From Acidobacteriota bacterium (lineage in GTDB: Bacteria > Acidobacteriota > UBA6911 > RPQK01 > CBDAPI01), in contig OZ240092.1 of the NCBI GenBank assembly GCA_965197285.1, forward strand, positions 4,869,303 to 4,933,302: DNA of 64,000 bases, in the 5' to 3' direction. Position numbers and translations under genes: made by a program. The notes under the pieces were generated by a model, which worked only from the letters and a program-made list of their open reading frames with translations, had not been told where the DNA came from and did not search any database. Position 1 is the first letter of the stretch. The number at the start of each line of letters is the position of its first letter. This document shows positions 32,625-39,647 of this stretch, piece by piece.

Positions 32625-33214
32625 ACTCGGCGCCCAATATGTCAGTCCTGCCCGTGCTAGTGGGGATCCTGCTGCCAGTCCTGCAGCCCGCTCCTGAGCC
32701 CAGGCCAGAGCCCCGGTTGGAAAAGGTCGATCAATCCAGTTGCCACATCTACATCGACTATCGCATCATCTGGACTCTCGAAGTGGCACAGCAGTTCAAC
32801 CAGGCTCCGGTTCCGATCCTCAATATCATCACCTTCGACGCCAAGGAGACACCTCTCAAGCCCGATCAGATTCACCTGTACGATGCCGGGGATCGAACCG
32901 CCGAAGTCAAGAAATTCGCCATTGAGACGGGCTTCGAGCCGTATATCACCAATTATCTGAAGGTCCTGACCTCGTCTTTCATCGGGCTCGATTTGCAGGG
33001 CGATTTCGAGGGCTTTTCAGAGCCCAGTCGCGTAGTCATTGAGCTGGGTGAAACCGAATACCGGCTGCAGGCCGTAGACTGCCTCGATTTCGAGATGCTG
33101 GCGGAGCGGATCAACAAGGTCAACTACGACAGTCCTGATATCAAGGAAGATTTCGACCTGCTGCGCGTCCCCCACGTCGGAACCACCGGCCGCATCAGGA
33201 AGGGACGCCGCTGA
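32618..33214 (+). CDS. Hypothetical secreted protein
   Basis: Hydrophobic leader, Pro-rich linker, typical codon usage, overlaps the pyrF stop. Confidence 0.65.
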   Translation: MLNSAPNMSVLPVLVGILLPVLQPAPEPRPEPRLEKVDQSSCHIYIDYRIIWTLEVAQQFNQAPVPILNIITFDAKETPLKPDQIHLYDAGDRTAEVKKFAIETGFEPYITNYLKVLTSSFIGLDLQGDFEGFSEPSRVVIELGETEYRLQAVDCLDFEMLAERINKVNYDSPDIKEDFDLLRVPHVGTTGRIRKGRR

Positions 33215-33255
33215 GTTTCGGCCCCCGAAGAGTGAGTGGGCCTACTGGAGGTCTT

Positions 33256-33446
33256 TAGGAACTATAAGGGGCCTCAGGGCCGCGACCGCCGGGCTGTGTC
33301 AAGAAAGAGTGGGCAGGGCCCCGGGGCAGCGACCGTTTAAATACCCCCGGGAGTCGCCACGGGGCCCTGCCCACTCTTTCGTCCCGGCCCAGCAACTCGG
33401 GGTCGCGCCCCTAAGGCGCCTCCCGCGTCGCCGCCCCAAGGCGCCT
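33256..33446. repeat. GTGG-type REP/REPIN palindrome serving as the IS110 target
   Basis: Perfect 21-bp IR GAAAGAGTGGGCAGGGCCCCG (33303-33323 / 33360-33380) nested in an outer imperfect IR; tandem AAGGCGCCTCCC(G/A)C units, the second split by the IS110. Confidence 0.75.
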
Positions 33447-33574
33447 TATAGTTACTAACGATCTATTTTCCAACGATGGATTAGAAATAGTAGCGATTTT
33501 CTTTTTTGCTGCTTTTTTCTTTTCTGGGTTGTGGGAAAAAGTTTGCGCCGGGAGCGATCGAGGATTTGATTGCC

Positions 33575-33751
33575 TCTGTGCAGCACGCGCACCGTGGCGT
33601 TACGAATTTAAGGCGCCAGCGTACGAGACGCTTGGTGGGAGACTTTCGAACGCCACGGTGCACAGACAGCAAACGCATACTCTAGATGCTGTCCTTCGAG
33701 GACTCGACTATAAGGGTTGCGCAAGGTCTGGGCAAGCGTGTGCTGCGCAGA
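33575..33751 (+). ncRNA. Predicted IS110 bridge RNA
   Basis: Closing stem CTGTGCAGCACGCGC / GCGTGTGCTGCGCAG and two stem-loops with internal loops whose strands match target (TAAGGCGCC, GTGGGAGAC) and donor (AGATG, ACTATAAG) junction sequences. Confidence 0.8.
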
Positions 33752-33764
33752 AAGGAGTGGCGCA

Positions 33765-34068
33765 ATGTTAGCCACAGAACAGATCGCAGCATGGGTAGGA
33801 TTGGATTGGGCCGAAGATCAACATGAGATCCGACTGCGGGCCGCCGGCAGTCGGGAAGTAGAGAGGTATCAGGTGCGGCAAGACCCGGAAGAGTTGCACG
33901 AATGGGTACGCCAGCTAAGAACCCGTTTTGAGGGTCGTCCTGTGGTGATTGCCCTGGAGCAAAAGCGGGGAGGGTTGATGGCGGCGCTGATGTGCTATGA
34001 CTTTTTGCACCTGTACCCGATCAATCCGAAGACGGTGGCGAGCTATCGAGAGGCATTTTCACCCTCCG
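33765..34068 (+). CDS. IS110 recombinase/transposase, exon 1
   Basis: AAAGGAG RBS; VGLDWA (D1), ALEQ (E2), YPINP...YREAFSPS. Confidence 0.9.
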
Positions 34069-34561
34069 GTGCGCCGGCGCAAACCGGTGAGTAGCAGAGA
34101 GCGAGAGTCTCTCACAGGAAAGGAGTAGCGAACCATGCTGACCCCGAGTCATGCGTGTGTACTCGTAAGAGTGCAGGCGAAGCATTGACAGGGGCACGTG
34201 CGGGCCAGGTATTGAGCCGCGGAAGGAAAATGACTTCGGGGGGCCGACGTAGTCGTAGGATCGGAAGGCAACATGGAACCGTTCGCTAATCGCGAGAACG
34301 ATTCCGCCCCCGCGTGGTCCCGAGACCTTGTGCACGTACGGAAGTTGCTTACACGGGAGCCGGGAGATCCCGCCTCTGACCCCAGGGGGATGGCCCCAAG
34401 GTCCGCGCTGTGAATCCGAAAGGAGCACGACAGCGATGCACGGAGGCGGGAAGTCGGACAGGCTGATAGTAGCTGAGAAGCGCTCGAACAAAGACGGCGG
34501 TGCGCCGCGGTCGGCGGAGAGGGTGGAGCCAAGCGGCCTGGCCAAAGGGAATTCGTCCTAG

Positions 34562-36213
34562 CCCGGATTATGCAAGAACCGTAGTTCGGTGTTGAAAAAC
34601 GACTCGAGAAGTGGCCCAACTCGGAAGCGGGCAGGTGTGACAGGCGGATTTGCGAAGAATATGGGTTGGCGAGGCGTTTGAGTGGTTTGGGGAGTGAATT
34701 TCAGACAGATCTGGGCCTGGATGAGTGTCGGAAGCGGTTTTTCGGGGGAGCTGGGAAAAGCTAACTGGAGTTCAGGCGACTCAAGACGAGGTGGAAGAGG
34801 GGTTGTTCGGGGAAGGCTGAGGAAAGATGGACCCAGATGCGTCGAGTGGTTTGTCGGATCCGGGCCCCAATCTTGAGGACCCGACGACGTAAGGTTTCGA
34901 TTTCGAGCTTGTGCCAGGGGGTTCCGTGAAGATAGTCGCGCAGGCGCACGAACATCTGGTAAGCCAGTGCATGCAGGAGGAGTCGAAACTGATTGGCCAG
35001 GAATCGATGACAGCTGAGTCGGTCCATGCTCAGATGATTCTTGAAGGCCTTGATGAAGTTCTCGGTCTGCCCTCGGTTTGTGTAGTGGTCATAAAGTGAT
35101 TGGGAGCAGAGATCGTCCCGGTTGGCAACTACAAAGCGACGATTGATGCCACGCTGATCGACCTCCACTTTGACAATGACGCGACGGGATCGATCCCAGC
35201 TGTGGGCTCGATAAAGAAACTCGTCAAACTGACGCTGTTTTTCCTCCAGCTCAAGGAACCTCAGCCGAGTCGAATCCAGCAGGGGCTCGACCACTCGCTG
35301 CAGGCGAGGGTTTCGACTTAACCCAATGACATACTGGAGTTTATTCTCTTCACATTCACAGAACTCGTAGAGCCGAGGCGTGGCAAAGCCGCTGTCGGCC
35401 CGAATCTCAATCTCGACATCCGTCCCCACTGCTTGTCGGATGGCCTCCACGACTCGCTTCAGAATGGGCACGATGTGAGAGGCAGCCCCCTTGTTGCCAG
35501 GTCTCAACACGGCACAGACCAGGTCTCCCGTGTCGGCATCGAAGATCAGCAAAGGATGCAGAATGTGGTTTCGGTAATACCCGTGGTAGAAGGAGAACTC
35601 CTGTTGGCCGTGAGTGTGGTCGTCGGTACTGTCCAGATCCAGGATGATCTTGCTGGGACGTCTCTTCTTCAGGGAGCGCACATAACGGCCTGGCAGCCAC
35701 CGGCTCAGACGCATCAGATCCTTCTTGGTGACGGAGTTCTCCAGGCGGGAGAAAGTCGGCTGGGTGGCCAAATCGGGATCGCTCTCTGGCAACTGATCAC
35801 AGACGGTCTTGAGCATCGGATCCGAGCGCAGCGTATCGGCGTCATTACAGTCTTCGTAGCCGGCCACGATCTGCAAGACTCGTTGTCGGATCAACTTCAA
35901 CAGGTCATGACGAACGTAGCGTCGGTCTCGACTTTCCGAAATACACGAACTGAAGCCCTCGCACAATCGATGTTGACGATCCAGCGATCCAAACAACAAC
36001 CATCCTGCGTCGGAAGTGAGGCTCCCCCCATCAAAACGAGCCGTGATGTTTCTGTGGCTATGAAATGGCAGGGTATTCTGGCAGACTGTTTTTGACATTG
36101 CCGTAGCTCCTGTTTAGGGTCATTGTTTTTGTAAACCCTTTTATATCAGAGAGCTACGGCCTTTTTCCTGGGCCCAAATCTCACTCGGATTCAGATCTTT
36201 TGCATAATTCGTC
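34562..36213 (-). mobile_element. IS1380-family element inside the group II intron
   Basis: Ends CCCGGATTATGCAA ... TTGCATAATTCGTC; CTAG duplicated at 34558-34561 and 36214-36217. Confidence 0.88.
34761..36098 (-). CDS. IS1380-family transposase (DDE_Tnp_1_4)
   Basis: FDGGSLTSDAG, AGYEDCND, LDLDST, HGQQE, IRADSGF, RGQTENFIK, FLANQFRL. Confidence 0.95.
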   Translation of the reverse strand: MSKTVCQNTLPFHSHRNITARFDGGSLTSDAGWLLFGSLDRQHRLCEGFSSCISESRDRRYVRHDLLKLIRQRVLQIVAGYEDCNDADTLRSDPMLKTVCDQLPESDPDLATQPTFSRLENSVTKKDLMRLSRWLPGRYVRSLKKRRPSKIILDLDSTDDHTHGQQEFSFYHGYYRNHILHPLLIFDADTGDLVCAVLRPGNKGAASHIVPILKRVVEAIRQAVGTDVEIEIRADSGFATPRLYEFCECEENKLQYVIGLSRNPRLQRVVEPLLDSTRLRFLELEEKQRQFDEFLYRAHSWDRSRRVIVKVEVDQRGINRRFVVANRDDLCSQSLYDHYTNRGQTENFIKAFKNHLSMDRLSCHRFLANQFRLLLHALAYQMFVRLRDYLHGTPWHKLEIETLRRRVLKIGARIRQTTRRIWVHLSSAFPEQPLFHLVLSRLNSS

Positions 36214-36257
36214 CTAGCAAAACAAGTGCCGGACACAGAGCCGGGAGAGGAATCGAT

Positions 36258-37655
36258 ATGGAGGACTCTAAACGGGCACCAAGCGGGAAATCGCGGACAC
36301 AGCCAAGAGACCGCACCTACGTCGAAACCGAGGACTTGCAAAGTGCGCTGGAACGGATACGGCAGGTAGCCTGCCGGGATAAGGAGCTACGGTTCACGTC
36401 GCTCTGGCACCACGTCACTAACATCGATCGACTCCGGCAGGCTTACTTCGGCCTCAAGCGCAATGCCGCACCGGGCGTGGATGGATTGACGTGGCAGCAA
36501 TACGGAGAGAGCCTCGAGGAGAACCTCCAGGATCTATCCGCAAGGCTCAAACGCGGAGCGTACCGAGCCAAGCCGGTTCGGAGGGCCTATATACCGAAGG
36601 CCGATGGGCGGCAGCGTCCGCTCGGAGTGACTGCATTGGAGGATAAGATCGTCCAGCGGTCTACGGTCCAGGTATTGAACGCCATCTACGAAACCGACTT
36701 TCTCGGCTTCTCGTATAGTTTCCGCCCGGGGCGCAGTCCACACCATGCGTTGGACGCGCTCTATGTCGGAATCATGCGCAAGCGAGTGAACTGGGTGCTG
36801 GATGCGGACGTTTGTGGGTTTTTCGATGCCATCGACCACAAATGGCTGTTGAAGTTCATCGAGCACAGAATCGCCGATCCACGTGTTATCCGCCACCTTA
36901 AAAAGTGGCTCAAGGCGGGGATCGTGGAGGATGGGAAGCGAACCGAGATCGAATCCGGTACGCCTCAAGGCGGGAGTGTTTCACCCGTGTTGGCTAATGT
37001 GTACCTTCATTATGTGTTCGATCTATGGGCCGACCAATGGAGACGCAGGCACGCTCGTGGCGATGTAATCATCGTCCGGTTTGCCGACGACTTCACAGTG
37101 GGTTTCGAGTTTCGTGAAGATGCCGAGCGTTTTCTGGCAGACTTGCGGGACCGGTTCCACACGTTTCACCTGGAACTGCACCCCGACAAAACGCGCTTGA
37201 TCGAGTTCGGGCGGTACGCCGCTCGGGATCGCAAGCGCCGTGGAGAAGGGAAGCCCGAGTCTTTCGACTTCCTGGGTTTTACGCACACGTGCGACAGAAC
37301 CCGGAACGGGAGATTCATCGTGCTGCGGCAGACCATGCGGAAGCGCATGCAAGCGAAACTGCGAGAGATCGCTCGCGAGCTTCGGTATCGCCTGCATGAA
37401 CCCGTCCCGGTAGTGGGTCAGTGGTTGCGCAGTGTAGTACAGGGACATTTCCAGTACTATGCCGTACCGCGTAACCATCGCAAGCCGGCCGCTTTCAAGT
37501 ATCAGGTCTATCGACTCTGGCTGCGTGCGCTAAGGCGTCGTAGCCAGCGTCATCGGATCACTGGAGAGCGGATGAACCGCCTAGCGACAAGATGGCTTCC
37601 TGCACTGCGAGTTGTACACCCTTATCCCGAACAGCGACTGCGCGTTATTACCTGA
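36258..37655 (+). CDS. ltrA: Group II intron reverse transcriptase/maturase without endonuclease domain
   Basis: APGVDG, YIPKADGRQRPLG, SYSFRPGRS, GTPQGG..SP.LAN, RFADD, FDFLGF and domain X; ends just before domain V. Confidence 0.95.
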   Translation: MEDSKRAPSGKSRTQPRDRTYVETEDLQSALERIRQVACRDKELRFTSLWHHVTNIDRLRQAYFGLKRNAAPGVDGLTWQQYGESLEENLQDLSARLKRGAYRAKPVRRAYIPKADGRQRPLGVTALEDKIVQRSTVQVLNAIYETDFLGFSYSFRPGRSPHHALDALYVGIMRKRVNWVLDADVCGFFDAIDHKWLLKFIEHRIADPRVIRHLKKWLKAGIVEDGKRTEIESGTPQGGSVSPVLANVYLHYVFDLWADQWRRRHARGDVIIVRFADDFTVGFEFREDAERFLADLRDRFHTFHLELHPDKTRLIEFGRYAARDRKRRGEGKPESFDFLGFTHTCDRTRNGRFIVLRQTMRKRMQAKLREIARELRYRLHEPVPVVGQWLRSVVQGHFQYYAVPRNHRKPAAFKYQVYRLWLRALRRRSQRHRITGERMNRLATRWLPALRVVHPYPEQRLRVIT

Positions 37656-37733
37656 GGTAAGAGCCCAGTGCGGTAGTTCCGCTCGCTGGGATCTGTGCGG
37701 GGGGCGATCCGAAAGGATCGTCCCTACCGCGAC

Positions 37734-38695
37734 GTAAGAAGGATGATCCGGAAGATTCGGACTTGTTGCTGGAGCTGGTGTACAGACACCGGGATCGATT
37801 GCGTTGTTGGAGACCGGAGGCGGCCCAGACCCGGGAGCTGGCGCTGTTGGTGGAGGGGCGACGCCAGTTGGTGGAGAGGCGCAAAGAACTGGTGCAGCAA
37901 CTGCGCGAGGTCTTGAAGAGCTACTATCCGCAGCCTTTGCAGTGGTTTGCAAAGTTGGATGGGCCGCTGGCTCTGGAGTTTTTGAGGCGCTGGCCCACCT
38001 TGGAGCAGGCTCGCAAAGTGCGGATCGATGTACTGGGTCGCTGCATGGCACGACATCGAGTACGCTGTGCCGAGACGAAGCTGCAAACATTGCTCGAGCA
38101 GATCCGTGCCAGTTACCCACTGACCCAGGATGAGGCTCTCATTGGAGCCGGTTCACTGAAACTGGTGGGCCTGGTCGAACAGCTCTCGGTTCTGCTGCCG
38201 ATCATCAAACGCTACGACAACCGCATTGCCACGCTCTTCGCCGAGCATGAAGATGCCGCTCTGTTTGCAAGCTTCAGCGGAGCCGGGCCGGCTCTGGCTC
38301 CTCGCTTGTTGGCGGCCTTCGGGTCGGATCGCAGTCGCTTTGAGGATGCTGAAGAGGTCCAAAAATGGAGCGGCATCGCTCCCGTAACACGAAAGAGCGG
38401 ACGAAGTTCTCAGGTGGTCTGGCGTCGAGGCTGTCCCAAGTTTATTCGCCAAACCTTTCATGAGTTTGCGGCCTGCTCAATTCCGCAATCGTCCTGGGCT
38501 CGTGCTTACTACCTGCAGCAACGTCAGCGCGGTCTCAAACACCACGCTGCCGTTCGATCTTTAGCTTACAAATGGATTCGCATTCTCTTCCGTTGCTGGA
38601 TGGATCGAGTCCACTATGACGAGGAACTCTACTGCCGGAGTCTCCAGAGGAGCAACTCTCCTCTTGTGGCTCTGATGCAACCGGCTTGTGGATAA
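37734..38695 (+). CDS. IS110 recombinase/transposase, exon 2
   Basis: (G)KKDDPEDSDLL (D3/D4), LKSYYP, GAGPALAPRL, SGIAPVTRKSG, AVRSLAYKWIRI; spliced ORF is 1266 nt = 421 aa. Confidence 0.9.
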
Positions 38696-38774
38696 GCTTC
38701 AAAAAAAGGGAGACAATTCTCTTGACTTATGAGCTCAGATGTCTCCCACATTCGGACCCCTGATTCCGGGATGG

Positions 38775-39647
38775 CTAGACGGCCCGCGGGACGAATACCT
38801 CTACCGAACGTCTGGCGACGCTGAAGTCCATGGGCAGAGTTCCGATGATCTCCCCGTCCATCTGCACCGGTATCGAGTCTTTGCCTCTCACGCTGATGTG
38901 CCTGGCCTTGACGTAGTGGACGTCGGGCAGTTTTACATGGCCCCCGGTGAGGACCCGCAGCAGATAGGTGACATAGCGCTTGCGATCGCGGGAGGTGAAA
39001 AGGCAGATGTCCAGACAGTCCTCGGTGACGTCGGCGTCCGGCGCCAGCTGGAGATGTCCTCCGTAAAGGCGGCTGTTGCTGATCACGGCGAAAGTGGCCT
39101 CCGCGGAGCGCCCGTCCAGGTAGATCTCGAATGGTTCCAGGGGAAGGTGTCGGTACGCTCGCAAGCCCGCCAGCCAGTACGAACCGACCCCGAAACGGCG
39201 CTTCAGTGCGGAAGAGGTCTGATCGATGACTTGGCTGTCCAATCCCACCCCGGCCATCAGATGGAAGTAATTGGGCCCGCTCTTGCCCAGGCGGATGCGG
39301 GTCCGGGTGCCCTCTTTCAAAAGGCGCAGCGCCCGGGTGGGGTCTCTGGGGATCGACAGTTCCCGGGCCAGCACATTCGCGGTTCCGGCCGGAAGAACGG
39401 CCACGGGGAGTTGAAGATCCAGTGCAGGTTCCAGCACCTGGTGGATGGTCCCGTCTCCCCCGTACGCAATGATCAGGTCATGGTCGTGCAGATCCTCGCT
39501 GCGAAGGGCTCCCGATGCCGGACTGGAACGGACGGCAGTGACCTCCAGCCCCATGGCATGGATTGCTTCGATCAGCTTTTGCCTTCTCCTTGGCGAGAGG
39601 GTGATTCGACCGGCGTTGGGATTGTAATAAAAGAGTGCACGTTTCAT
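38775..39647 (-). CDS. Diacylglycerol/lipid kinase family protein
   Basis: YNPNAG, GGDGTIHQV, PAGTANVLA, AGVGLD, QMDGE. Confidence 0.92.
   Translation of the reverse strand: MKRALFYYNPNAGRITLSPRRRQKLIEAIHAMGLEVTAVRSSPASGALRSEDLHDHDLIIAYGGDGTIHQVLEPALDLQLPVAVLPAGTANVLARELSIPRDPTRALRLLKEGTRTRIRLGKSGPNYFHLMAGVGLDSQVIDQTSSALKRRFGVGSYWLAGLRAYRHLPLEPFEIYLDGRSAEATFAVISNSRLYGGHLQLAPDADVTEDCLDICLFTSRDRKRYVTYLLRVLTGGHVKLPDVHYVKARHISVRGKDSIPVQMDGEIIGTLPMDFSVARRSVEVFVPRAV

Follow-up and report, generated by a model that had tools for sequence, protein, structure and literature searches.

Thermosynechococcus elongatus harbors a proliferating family of group II introns that includes derivatives without an open reading frame (ORF). 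A closer parallel to the locus described here is RmInt1 of Sinorhizobium meliloti, a mobile group II intron that lacks an endonuclease and has its homing site inside an insertion sequence (IS), ISRm2011-2. According to the accessible parts of the reports on this pair, expression of the transposase depends on splicing of the resident intron, splicing in vivo amounts to 0.07%, and it has been argued that the intron restricts how far its host IS spreads (PMC3035460, PMC4238363; for the homing site also PMC1802570). A third point of reference is the bridge RNA system of IS621 and other IS110-family elements, for which the accessible part of Durrant et al. (PMC11208160) describes a 5' guide that reads in the same sense as the left target, a 3' guide that is the complement of the right one, and a promoter that spans the junction of right end and left end (RE-LE junction) in the excised circle. 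Here we analyze a 64,000-nt stretch of the genome of an Acidobacteriota bacterium (contig OZ240092.1, positions 4,869,303 to 4,933,302; referred to throughout as the window), in which a group II intron splits the recombinase gene of an IS110-family element. A first-pass annotation of the window had seen in this locus a bridge recombinase gene whose expression, and with it RNA-guided transposition, is conditional on splicing. Our analysis of the window and of the closed 5.75-Mb source genome (G000) leads to a plainer reading: the locus is very probably a stack of selfish elements, three deep, that arose by ordinary nesting, and not a splicing-controlled system.

The locus resembles RmInt1/ISRm2011-2 in that a mobile endonuclease-less intron has a homing site inside an IS and that IS copies with and without the intron coexist. 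It differs in its host, which is an IS110-family element with an RNA-guided DEDD recombinase instead of ISRm2011-2, in the presence of the same intron at many non-IS sites in sister species, in the interruption of the window copy by an IS1380-family element, and in being known from sequence. With IS621 and the IS110 bridge systems it shares a recombinase with a DEDD motif and a serine, a noncoding RNA in the left end, a CT core, and a putative promoter divided across the circle junction, but its protein is no more than a distant relative of the IS621 one, one donor guide matches weakly, and the recombinase gene contains an intron at 8 of 23 loci. As in T. elongatus, there are near-identical intron copies at degenerate sites, mini-introns without an ORF, and tandem arrays in sister genomes, with the difference that one of the sites here is an IS110 recombinase gene.

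By ORF listing and Pfam matches, the recombinase lies in two pieces (ORFs 33717-34094 and 37763-38695), each with its own part of PF01548 (Table 1). Exon 1 ends in ...CCCTCCG at 34068 and exon 2 starts with GTAAGAAG at 37734; the insert between them, in sense orientation, begins with GTGCG at 34069 and ends with ...CGAC at 37733. These boundaries are exact, and all eight full-length intron-less copies of the element in G000 show the predicted junction, CCCTCCG being followed directly by GTAAGAAGG. When 33765-34068 and 37734-38695 were joined by script, an uninterrupted 421-aa ORF resulted that differs from an intron-less reference copy at three residues (160, 216, and 264). The split codon, that of Gly102, lies four residues ahead of D106. 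No variation is seen at Gly102, D14, E65, D106, D109, and S323 when 20 homologues are aligned (identity of 51-88% with the first sequence), the recombinase matches NF033542 with 154.3 bits (cut-off 140), and a profile built from the 20 homologues matches the IS621 transposase, entry 8wt6 of the Protein Data Bank (PDB), at E=1.7e-11. In the profile alignment a weak N-terminal stretch sets D14, E65, D106, and D109 against acidic residues of IS621 and the C-terminal stretch sets S323 against a serine; these IS621 residues we take to be the catalytic ones. Searched singly against the PDB with phmmer, the recombinase gave nothing at 1e-3 and only chance matches to ribosomal proteins at E<=10. The first-pass annotation was thus right that an insert at 34069-37733 splits a glycine codon, that its exact removal gives an uninterrupted ORF of 421 aa, and that the DEDD motif and the serine are intact. 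Judged by its sequence, the window copy could yield a full-length recombinase only through exact splicing; a sense intron that interrupts a transposase ORF and leaves the frame restored once removed is the arrangement that marks the RmInt1/ISRm2011-2 type.

What had been taken for a single intron, correctly bounded, contains a further element that had been overlooked. The 3,665-bp insert is made up of a 2,009-bp intron and 1,656 bp (34562-36217) contributed by an antisense IS1380-family element and its target duplication. The insertion point lies 40 nt 5' of the start codon of the intron-encoded reverse transcriptase (RT), at a small hairpin directly 5' of the RT ribosome-binding site in the minimum free energy (MFE) fold, and most likely falls within the 5' part of domain IV. 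This element is abundant in G000, where 163 of 191 BLAST matches exceed 1,500 bp, and in nearly all of 40 copies inspected its ends read CCCGGATTATGC.../...GCATAATCCGGG with 4-bp YTAR duplications. In the window copy the last 5 nt are aberrant, TCGTC standing in place of CCGGG, a replacement that creates a 9-nt repeat of intron sequence. The aberrant right end joined to the intron (36202-36218) is found at exactly two loci, the window and G000 position ∼2923329, where the other flank of the IS1380 element is not intron and the element itself differs from that of the window at 9 positions. The intron CTAG (positions 490-493) has been struck by IS1380 independently in three genomes, namely in the window, in G002 (L020; same orientation, canonical end), and in G003 (L019; opposite orientation, with a deletion). 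A mobile IS-bearing variant of the intron was considered and rejected, since orientation or junction in G002 and G003 differs from the window and the G002 stretch including the IS is just 96.8% identical to that of the window, pointing to independent insertions.

The intron itself is 2,009 bp long when intact and occurs in this form as a head-to-tail pair at 156409-160426 of G000 (L002); three mini copies are arrayed likewise in G002 (L006, L007), and in such arrays the upstream intron abuts the GTGCG of the next. The window copy matches the Rfam model RF02005 (group-II-D1D4-6) over its full length (1-225) at 34104-34328 with 174.3 bits (gathering score 49). The conserved GUGYG 5' end and AY 3' end are present, and the ends are identical at 16 distinct flanks. 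No endonuclease domain was found in the RT/maturase ORF, RVT_1 being its sole Pfam match at E<=0.01. By our own reading, the domain V-like hairpin would have an A, and not a U, opposite the central base of the usual AGC triad; this oddity is common to all copies of the intron, which is nonetheless clearly mobile.

Table 1. Features of the nested locus (coordinates of the window)
Feature	Position	Strand	Description and basis
REP-like palindromic hairpin	33293-33390	.	Upstream of the insertion site; long inverted repeat; same hairpin adjoins other IS110 copies
Unoccupied target-like site TAAGGCGC-CT-CCCGC	33412-33426	+	Neighboring 25-nt repeat unit; fits target consensus of 19/19 copies
Whole composite IS110-family element	33445-38744	+	5,300 bp, both CT cores; 1,636 bp without insert; flanks of 8, then 19 copies compared
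-10-like hexamer TATAGT	33447-33452	+	Left end; putative promoter element
Putative bridge RNA	33575-33750	+	Guide matches; MFE fold sets guides around hairpins
Recombinase exon 1	33765-34068	+	Residues 1-101 and base 1 of the Gly102 codon; PF01548 positions 1-88; translation
Group II intron, 5' segment	34069-34561	+	Intron positions 1-493: domains I-III and start of domain IV region; 99.8% identical to intact 2,009-bp copies
Putative EBS2 GAAAAT	34226-34231	+	Complement of exon -14 to -9; unpaired stretch of Rfam consensus structure
Putative EBS1 CGGAGG	34441-34446	+	Complement of exon -6 to -1
IS1380-family IS, 1,652 bp	34562-36213	-	Splits the intron at positions 493/494; ends checked against 40 of the 163 full-length copies
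IS1380-family transposase ORF, 445 aa	34761-36098	-	PF13701 476.8 bits; NF033539 372.2 bits (cut-off 180)
CTAG target duplication, second copy	36214-36217	+	First copy is intron positions 490-493 (34558-34561)
Group II intron, 3' segment	36218-37733	+	Intron positions 494-2009; 1,476 bp match another copy at 100% identity
Intron RT/maturase ORF, 465 aa	36258-37655	+	TIGR04416 344.7 bits (cut-off 300); RVT_1 121 bits
Domain V-like hairpin	37660-37694	+	MFE fold of ORF-less form and sequence reading
Domain VI	37696-37731	+	Bulged A at 37726, eighth base from intron 3' end; MFE fold of ORF-less form
Recombinase exon 2	37734-38695	+	Remainder of Gly102 codon to stop; holds D106, D109, S323; PF01548 positions 106-155 and PF02371
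-35-like hexamer TTGACT	38722-38727	+	Right end; putative promoter element
Right CT core copy	38743-38744	+	Flank comparison, 19 copies

A census of G000, taken by BLAST with three reference elements, found 23 IS110 loci, 8 bearing the intron and 15 without it. The intron-less loci comprise 8 full-length copies, 5 that are interrupted by other IS elements, and 2 that are truncated; the 421-aa ORF is intact in 7 of the 8 full-length copies, and three intron-less copies are 100% identical across 1,636 bp. On the intron-bearing side, 6 loci show the 5' exon-intron junction, 1 shows only the 3' junction, and at 2919468 fragments of intron and IS110 are adjacent with the junction lost. All eight IS110-borne introns are further disrupted, each at its own place or orientation. 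IS1380 accounts for breaks at three different places or orientations and deletions for the rest; one break is an IS3-family element, similarly sized inserts account for others, and at 4133642 the initial 400 nt of the intron have given way to another group II intron of a different kind. No secondary insertion is common to any two loci. IS1380 elements at intron positions 1857-1861 of loci 2054310 and 2755452 were considered as a marker of composite transposition and rejected, their orientations being opposite. We also observed that 4 of the 8 IS110-borne introns are interrupted within intron positions 1831-1861, that IS3-family and IS256-family elements are likewise nested in IS110 and intron copies, and that this other intron (L032, G000 4134100-4136250) encodes an RT of 456 aa (TIGR04416, 405 bits).

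We compared the divergence of the introns with that of their hosts. The IS110 copies at six intron-bearing loci differ by 1.04% per site (15 pairs), against a mean of 0.08% over all 45 pairs of 10 intron copies, with no pair above 0.15%; the introns are thus ∼13 times more alike than the elements that house them. Two haplotype blocks, distinguished by 45 informative columns, are combined mosaic-fashion in the host copies, and the intron sits in several of these backgrounds. Among the 16 distinct 5' flanks, that of the IS110 site alone pairs 6/6 and 6/6 with GAAAAT and CGGAGG, the putative exon-binding sites EBS2 and EBS1; the other 15 reach at most 5/6 for the intron-binding site IBS1. In the sister species G002, which has at least 14 intron matches, none of the five full-length IS110 copies and further fragments is split near residue 102. 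Its IS110 protein is 88% identical to that of G000, and the site in the copy examined has changes at -14, -5, and -2, of which two fall in IBS1. Of the 41 genomes searched, G000 was the sole one to yield DNA of IS110 exon 1. Four of eight other genomes of the genus (G002, G003, G004, and G007) hold the intron at 99.7-99.9% identity, at many non-IS110 sites, and such near-identity across five species-level genomes suggests recent horizontal spread. Given that the hosts have diverged so much further than the introns, that the EBS match is unique to the IS110 site, and that IS110 of G002 is uninvaded, these data favor retrohoming, both recent and repeated, into IS110 copies already in place, as against hitchhiking; the proposal that the intron travels as cargo of IS110 is unneeded for the eight loci, with introns so much alike and the IS110 site as the best EBS1/EBS2 match.

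ORF-less mini-introns, in which positions 1-646 are joined to 1906-2009 or 1-666 to 1891-2009, occur at many sites in the sister species G002 (L014-L017, L020, L022, L025, L028) and G003 (L023, L026), which implies mobilization in trans. In G057, of the same order, a 48%-identical IS110 homologue gives 23 matches, each with one in-frame TAG.

Anatomy, copy census, divergence contrast, and site complementarity are direct observations; the order of events is one that we infer. A 1,636-bp IS110-family bridge-RNA IS with a CT core would have entered a 25-nt repeat associated with a repetitive extragenic palindromic (REP) element, after which the 2,009-bp endonuclease-less intron would have retrohomed in sense at the Gly102 codon, a site that pairs perfectly with its putative EBS2 and EBS1. 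Last, a CTAG hot spot 40 nt ahead of the RT start codon would have received an IS1380-family element in antisense orientation. The intron would already have been spreading in the genus at many near-cognate sites, invading diverged, pre-existing IS110 copies singly.

That the host is a genuine bridge-type IS110 element is well supported at the level of sequence. Its target is a 25-nt repeat that adjoins a REP-like hairpin and includes GTCGCCGCCCCAAGGCGC-CT-CCCAC, and in all 19 copies having both ends the left target reads GTCGCCGCCCC(A/G)AGGCGC, CT stands at both junctions, and CTCCC is found on the right. The motif AAGGCGCCTCCC has 9 occurrences in G000; the hairpin surfaced in Rfam only as spurious miRNA-like matches. 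Guides were sought by the geometry of PMC11208160 (accessible part), with the 5' guide pairing to the bottom strand and the 3' guide to the top strand. The left target guide (LTG) AAGGCGCC at 33610 pairs 8/9 with left target and core, the right target guide (RTG) GTGGGAG at 33635 pairs 7/7, and the right donor guide (RDG) GACTATAAG at 33706-33714, in the donor-binding loop, pairs 8/9 with the right donor; for the left donor guide the match is weak (5/9). The LTG, RTG, and RDG matches were jointly attained in none of 20,000 shuffles, and Rfam gave no match to a bridge RNA family in 33000-39500 at E<=1. The IS110 element of G002 (L033, G002:C19:70100-71900), with 90.7% nucleotide identity to that of G000, has GAGGCCC-CT as its target where G000 has AAGGCGC-CT, and its LTG, compared with window 33607-33641, carries the matching single G-to-C change. 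This covariation of guide and target by a single base has the appearance of natural retargeting and, as a comparison of sequences, confirms the bridge RNA.

The -35-like and -10-like hexamers TTGACT and TATAGT come to lie 17 nt apart solely in the computed junction of the excised circle, following the principle of a promoter that spans the RE-LE junction (accessible part of PMC11208160). With this geometry a single precursor holding bridge RNA, exon 1, intron, and exon 2, as envisaged in the first-pass annotation, would be possible; its placing of the insertion at REP sites and its ∼5.3-kb IS110 unit (5,300 bp, 33445-38744) agree with the 19 of 19 copies at the REP-associated repeat and with the mapped ends. 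The RE-LE junction itself had 0 matches in the assembly. A scan for promoters found 2 against a shuffle mean of 2.1, nothing standing above the shuffles, and 11 terminator-like sites were found against 4.9 in shuffles, none of them compelling.

RNA evidence came from the contigs of four metatranscriptome runs, libraries in which DNA may be present. One 282-nt contig, from one of the four runs (X17), joins 34068 to 37734 without a mismatch and covers 33904-34068 and 37734-37850. The bases private to the window copy are G at 33535, A at 37908, A at 38075, and C at 38221. Because the contig holds no copy-specific base and intron-less copies, as RNA or as DNA, would read alike, it is uninformative on splicing of the window copy; likewise, reverse transcription PCR across the exon junction would be positive regardless of splicing, given the 15 intron-less loci. 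Contigs in X16, X17, and X18 skip from 34549 to 36206 and represent the IS-free intron at other sites, the flank in one of them being that of a site also present in G007. No contig among those listed from the four runs bridges an intron/IS1380 junction.

Several observations weigh against the nesting account as we have given it. The IS-bearing intron may still splice, since it retains an intact RT ORF, intact domain V-like and VI hairpins, and two intact splice sites, and the IS1380 insertion lies outside the Rfam-matched core, in the region adjoining the ORF. No invariant column is touched by the three residues at which the window exons differ. At 1936294 and 2054310, both of which have the intron, the IS110 copies are of one mosaic haplotype, unique to this pair, and differ at 3 of 1,636 positions; one co-transposition of IS110 and intron is therefore possible there. 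Frequent recombination among copies, to which the mosaic haplotypes attest, could homogenize the introns and blur the divergence argument. EBS1 and EBS2 are assigned by complementarity, and a 6-mer complement is expected by chance within 533 nt in about 1 of 8 cases. Finally, RF00029, the Rfam model of domains V and VI, gave no match at E<=1 in 33000-39500.

If the intron-bearing IS110 were a working unit, as the first-pass annotation supposed, splicing would gate the recombinase and the circle would carry the intron as cargo to REP-associated targets. The exact junction, the intact 421-aa joined ORF, the intact bridge RNA and cores, and the -35, 17-nt, -10 geometry of the junction promoter are all as such a unit would have them; intron-bearing copies exist at 8 loci, 1936294 and 2054310 share both their unique host mosaic and the intron, and large cargo is carried by IS110 elements according to the accessible part of bioRxiv 10.64898/2026.08.14.744561. 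Yet all eight IS110-borne introns are broken, each differently and with no secondary insertion shared, the IS1380 pair at intron positions 1857-1861 is in opposite orientation, the introns are far more uniform than the hosts, the assembly holds no RE-LE junction, and in the analogous case of RmInt1 splicing in vivo was measured at 0.07% (accessible part of PMC3035460). Seven intact intron-less recombinase genes also stand against this account, and because such genes exist the IS110 family is independent of splicing. Transposition conditional on splicing would hold for the window copy in cis and fails for the family, in which the recombinase of 7 of the 8 full-length intron-less copies could act in trans. 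A working coupling is weakened further by the 1.65-kb IS in the intron and by a multi-locus pattern that is best explained by retrohoming, and we regard it as distinctly unlikely. The window copy, its ends, bridge RNA, and exons being intact, could at most move in trans and is most likely non-autonomous. A looser partnership might still be imagined, in which the excision of any IS110 copy lets the circle-junction promoter drive bridge RNA and recombinase gene, intron-bearing copies thereby give bursts of intron expression that lead to retrohoming into other IS110 copies, and the composite is moved in trans by the recombinase of intron-less copies. We give this only a small chance; if true, it would open to the intron a second way to new REP-associated sites, one that is RNA-guided and runs through DNA, and 1936294/2054310 would be one such event.

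An account in the manner of RmInt1, in which a poorly spliced intron brakes the spread of IS110, overlaps with the nesting that we favor. It has precedent and reasoning behind it (accessible parts of PMC3035460 and PMC4238363), and 8 of the 23 IS110 loci are indeed inactivated in cis by the intron. The three intron-less copies that are 100% identical over 1,636 bp suggest recent transposition, however, so that no containment is visible, selection for a brake is not demonstrable from sequence, and the genome is swamped by IS elements anyway, as its 163 full-length IS1380 copies show; we consider containment conceivable but doubtful. The mosaic structure of the IS110 copies, with its two haplotype blocks and 45 informative columns, could also be read as a sign that the intron was spread by gene conversion, that is, by DNA-level exchange between IS110 copies instead of RNA-mediated retrohoming, the more so as columns 768-1267 of 1936294 and 2054310, next 3' of the intron site, are of the other block's type except for two single variants. 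But across five genomes the same intron occupies 16 distinct flanks with its ends exact, which only retromobility explains; the putative EBS1 and EBS2 pair without a mismatch at the IS110 site, and the mismatched IS110 of G002 is uninvaded. Gene conversion as the means of spread is accordingly an unlikely alternative to retrohoming.

The first-pass annotation had held the coupling of splicing to transposition to be uncharacterized for a bridge system. The host type is indeed new, but splicing-dependent transposase expression has been described for RmInt1/ISRm2011-2 (accessible parts of PMC3035460 and PMC4238363). A full-text literature search, judged by title and the start of the abstract, found no description of an intron inside an IS110 recombinase gene, and supplements might list interrupted IS110 genes; the terms "intron," "retroelement," "reverse transcriptase," and "nested" are absent from bioRxiv 10.64898/2026.08.14.744561 in its accessible part. 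Group II introns that home into IS elements and throttle their hosts by poor splicing are thus already known, and an RNA-guided bridge recombinase as the host is new. The case shows no regulatory coupling, and the window copy is disabled, or at least burdened, by the third element. It does provide clean natural material, a single genome in which the intron has invaded 8 IS110 loci and left 15 free, next to a sister species whose IS110 escapes invasion via three site changes, at -14, -5, and -2.

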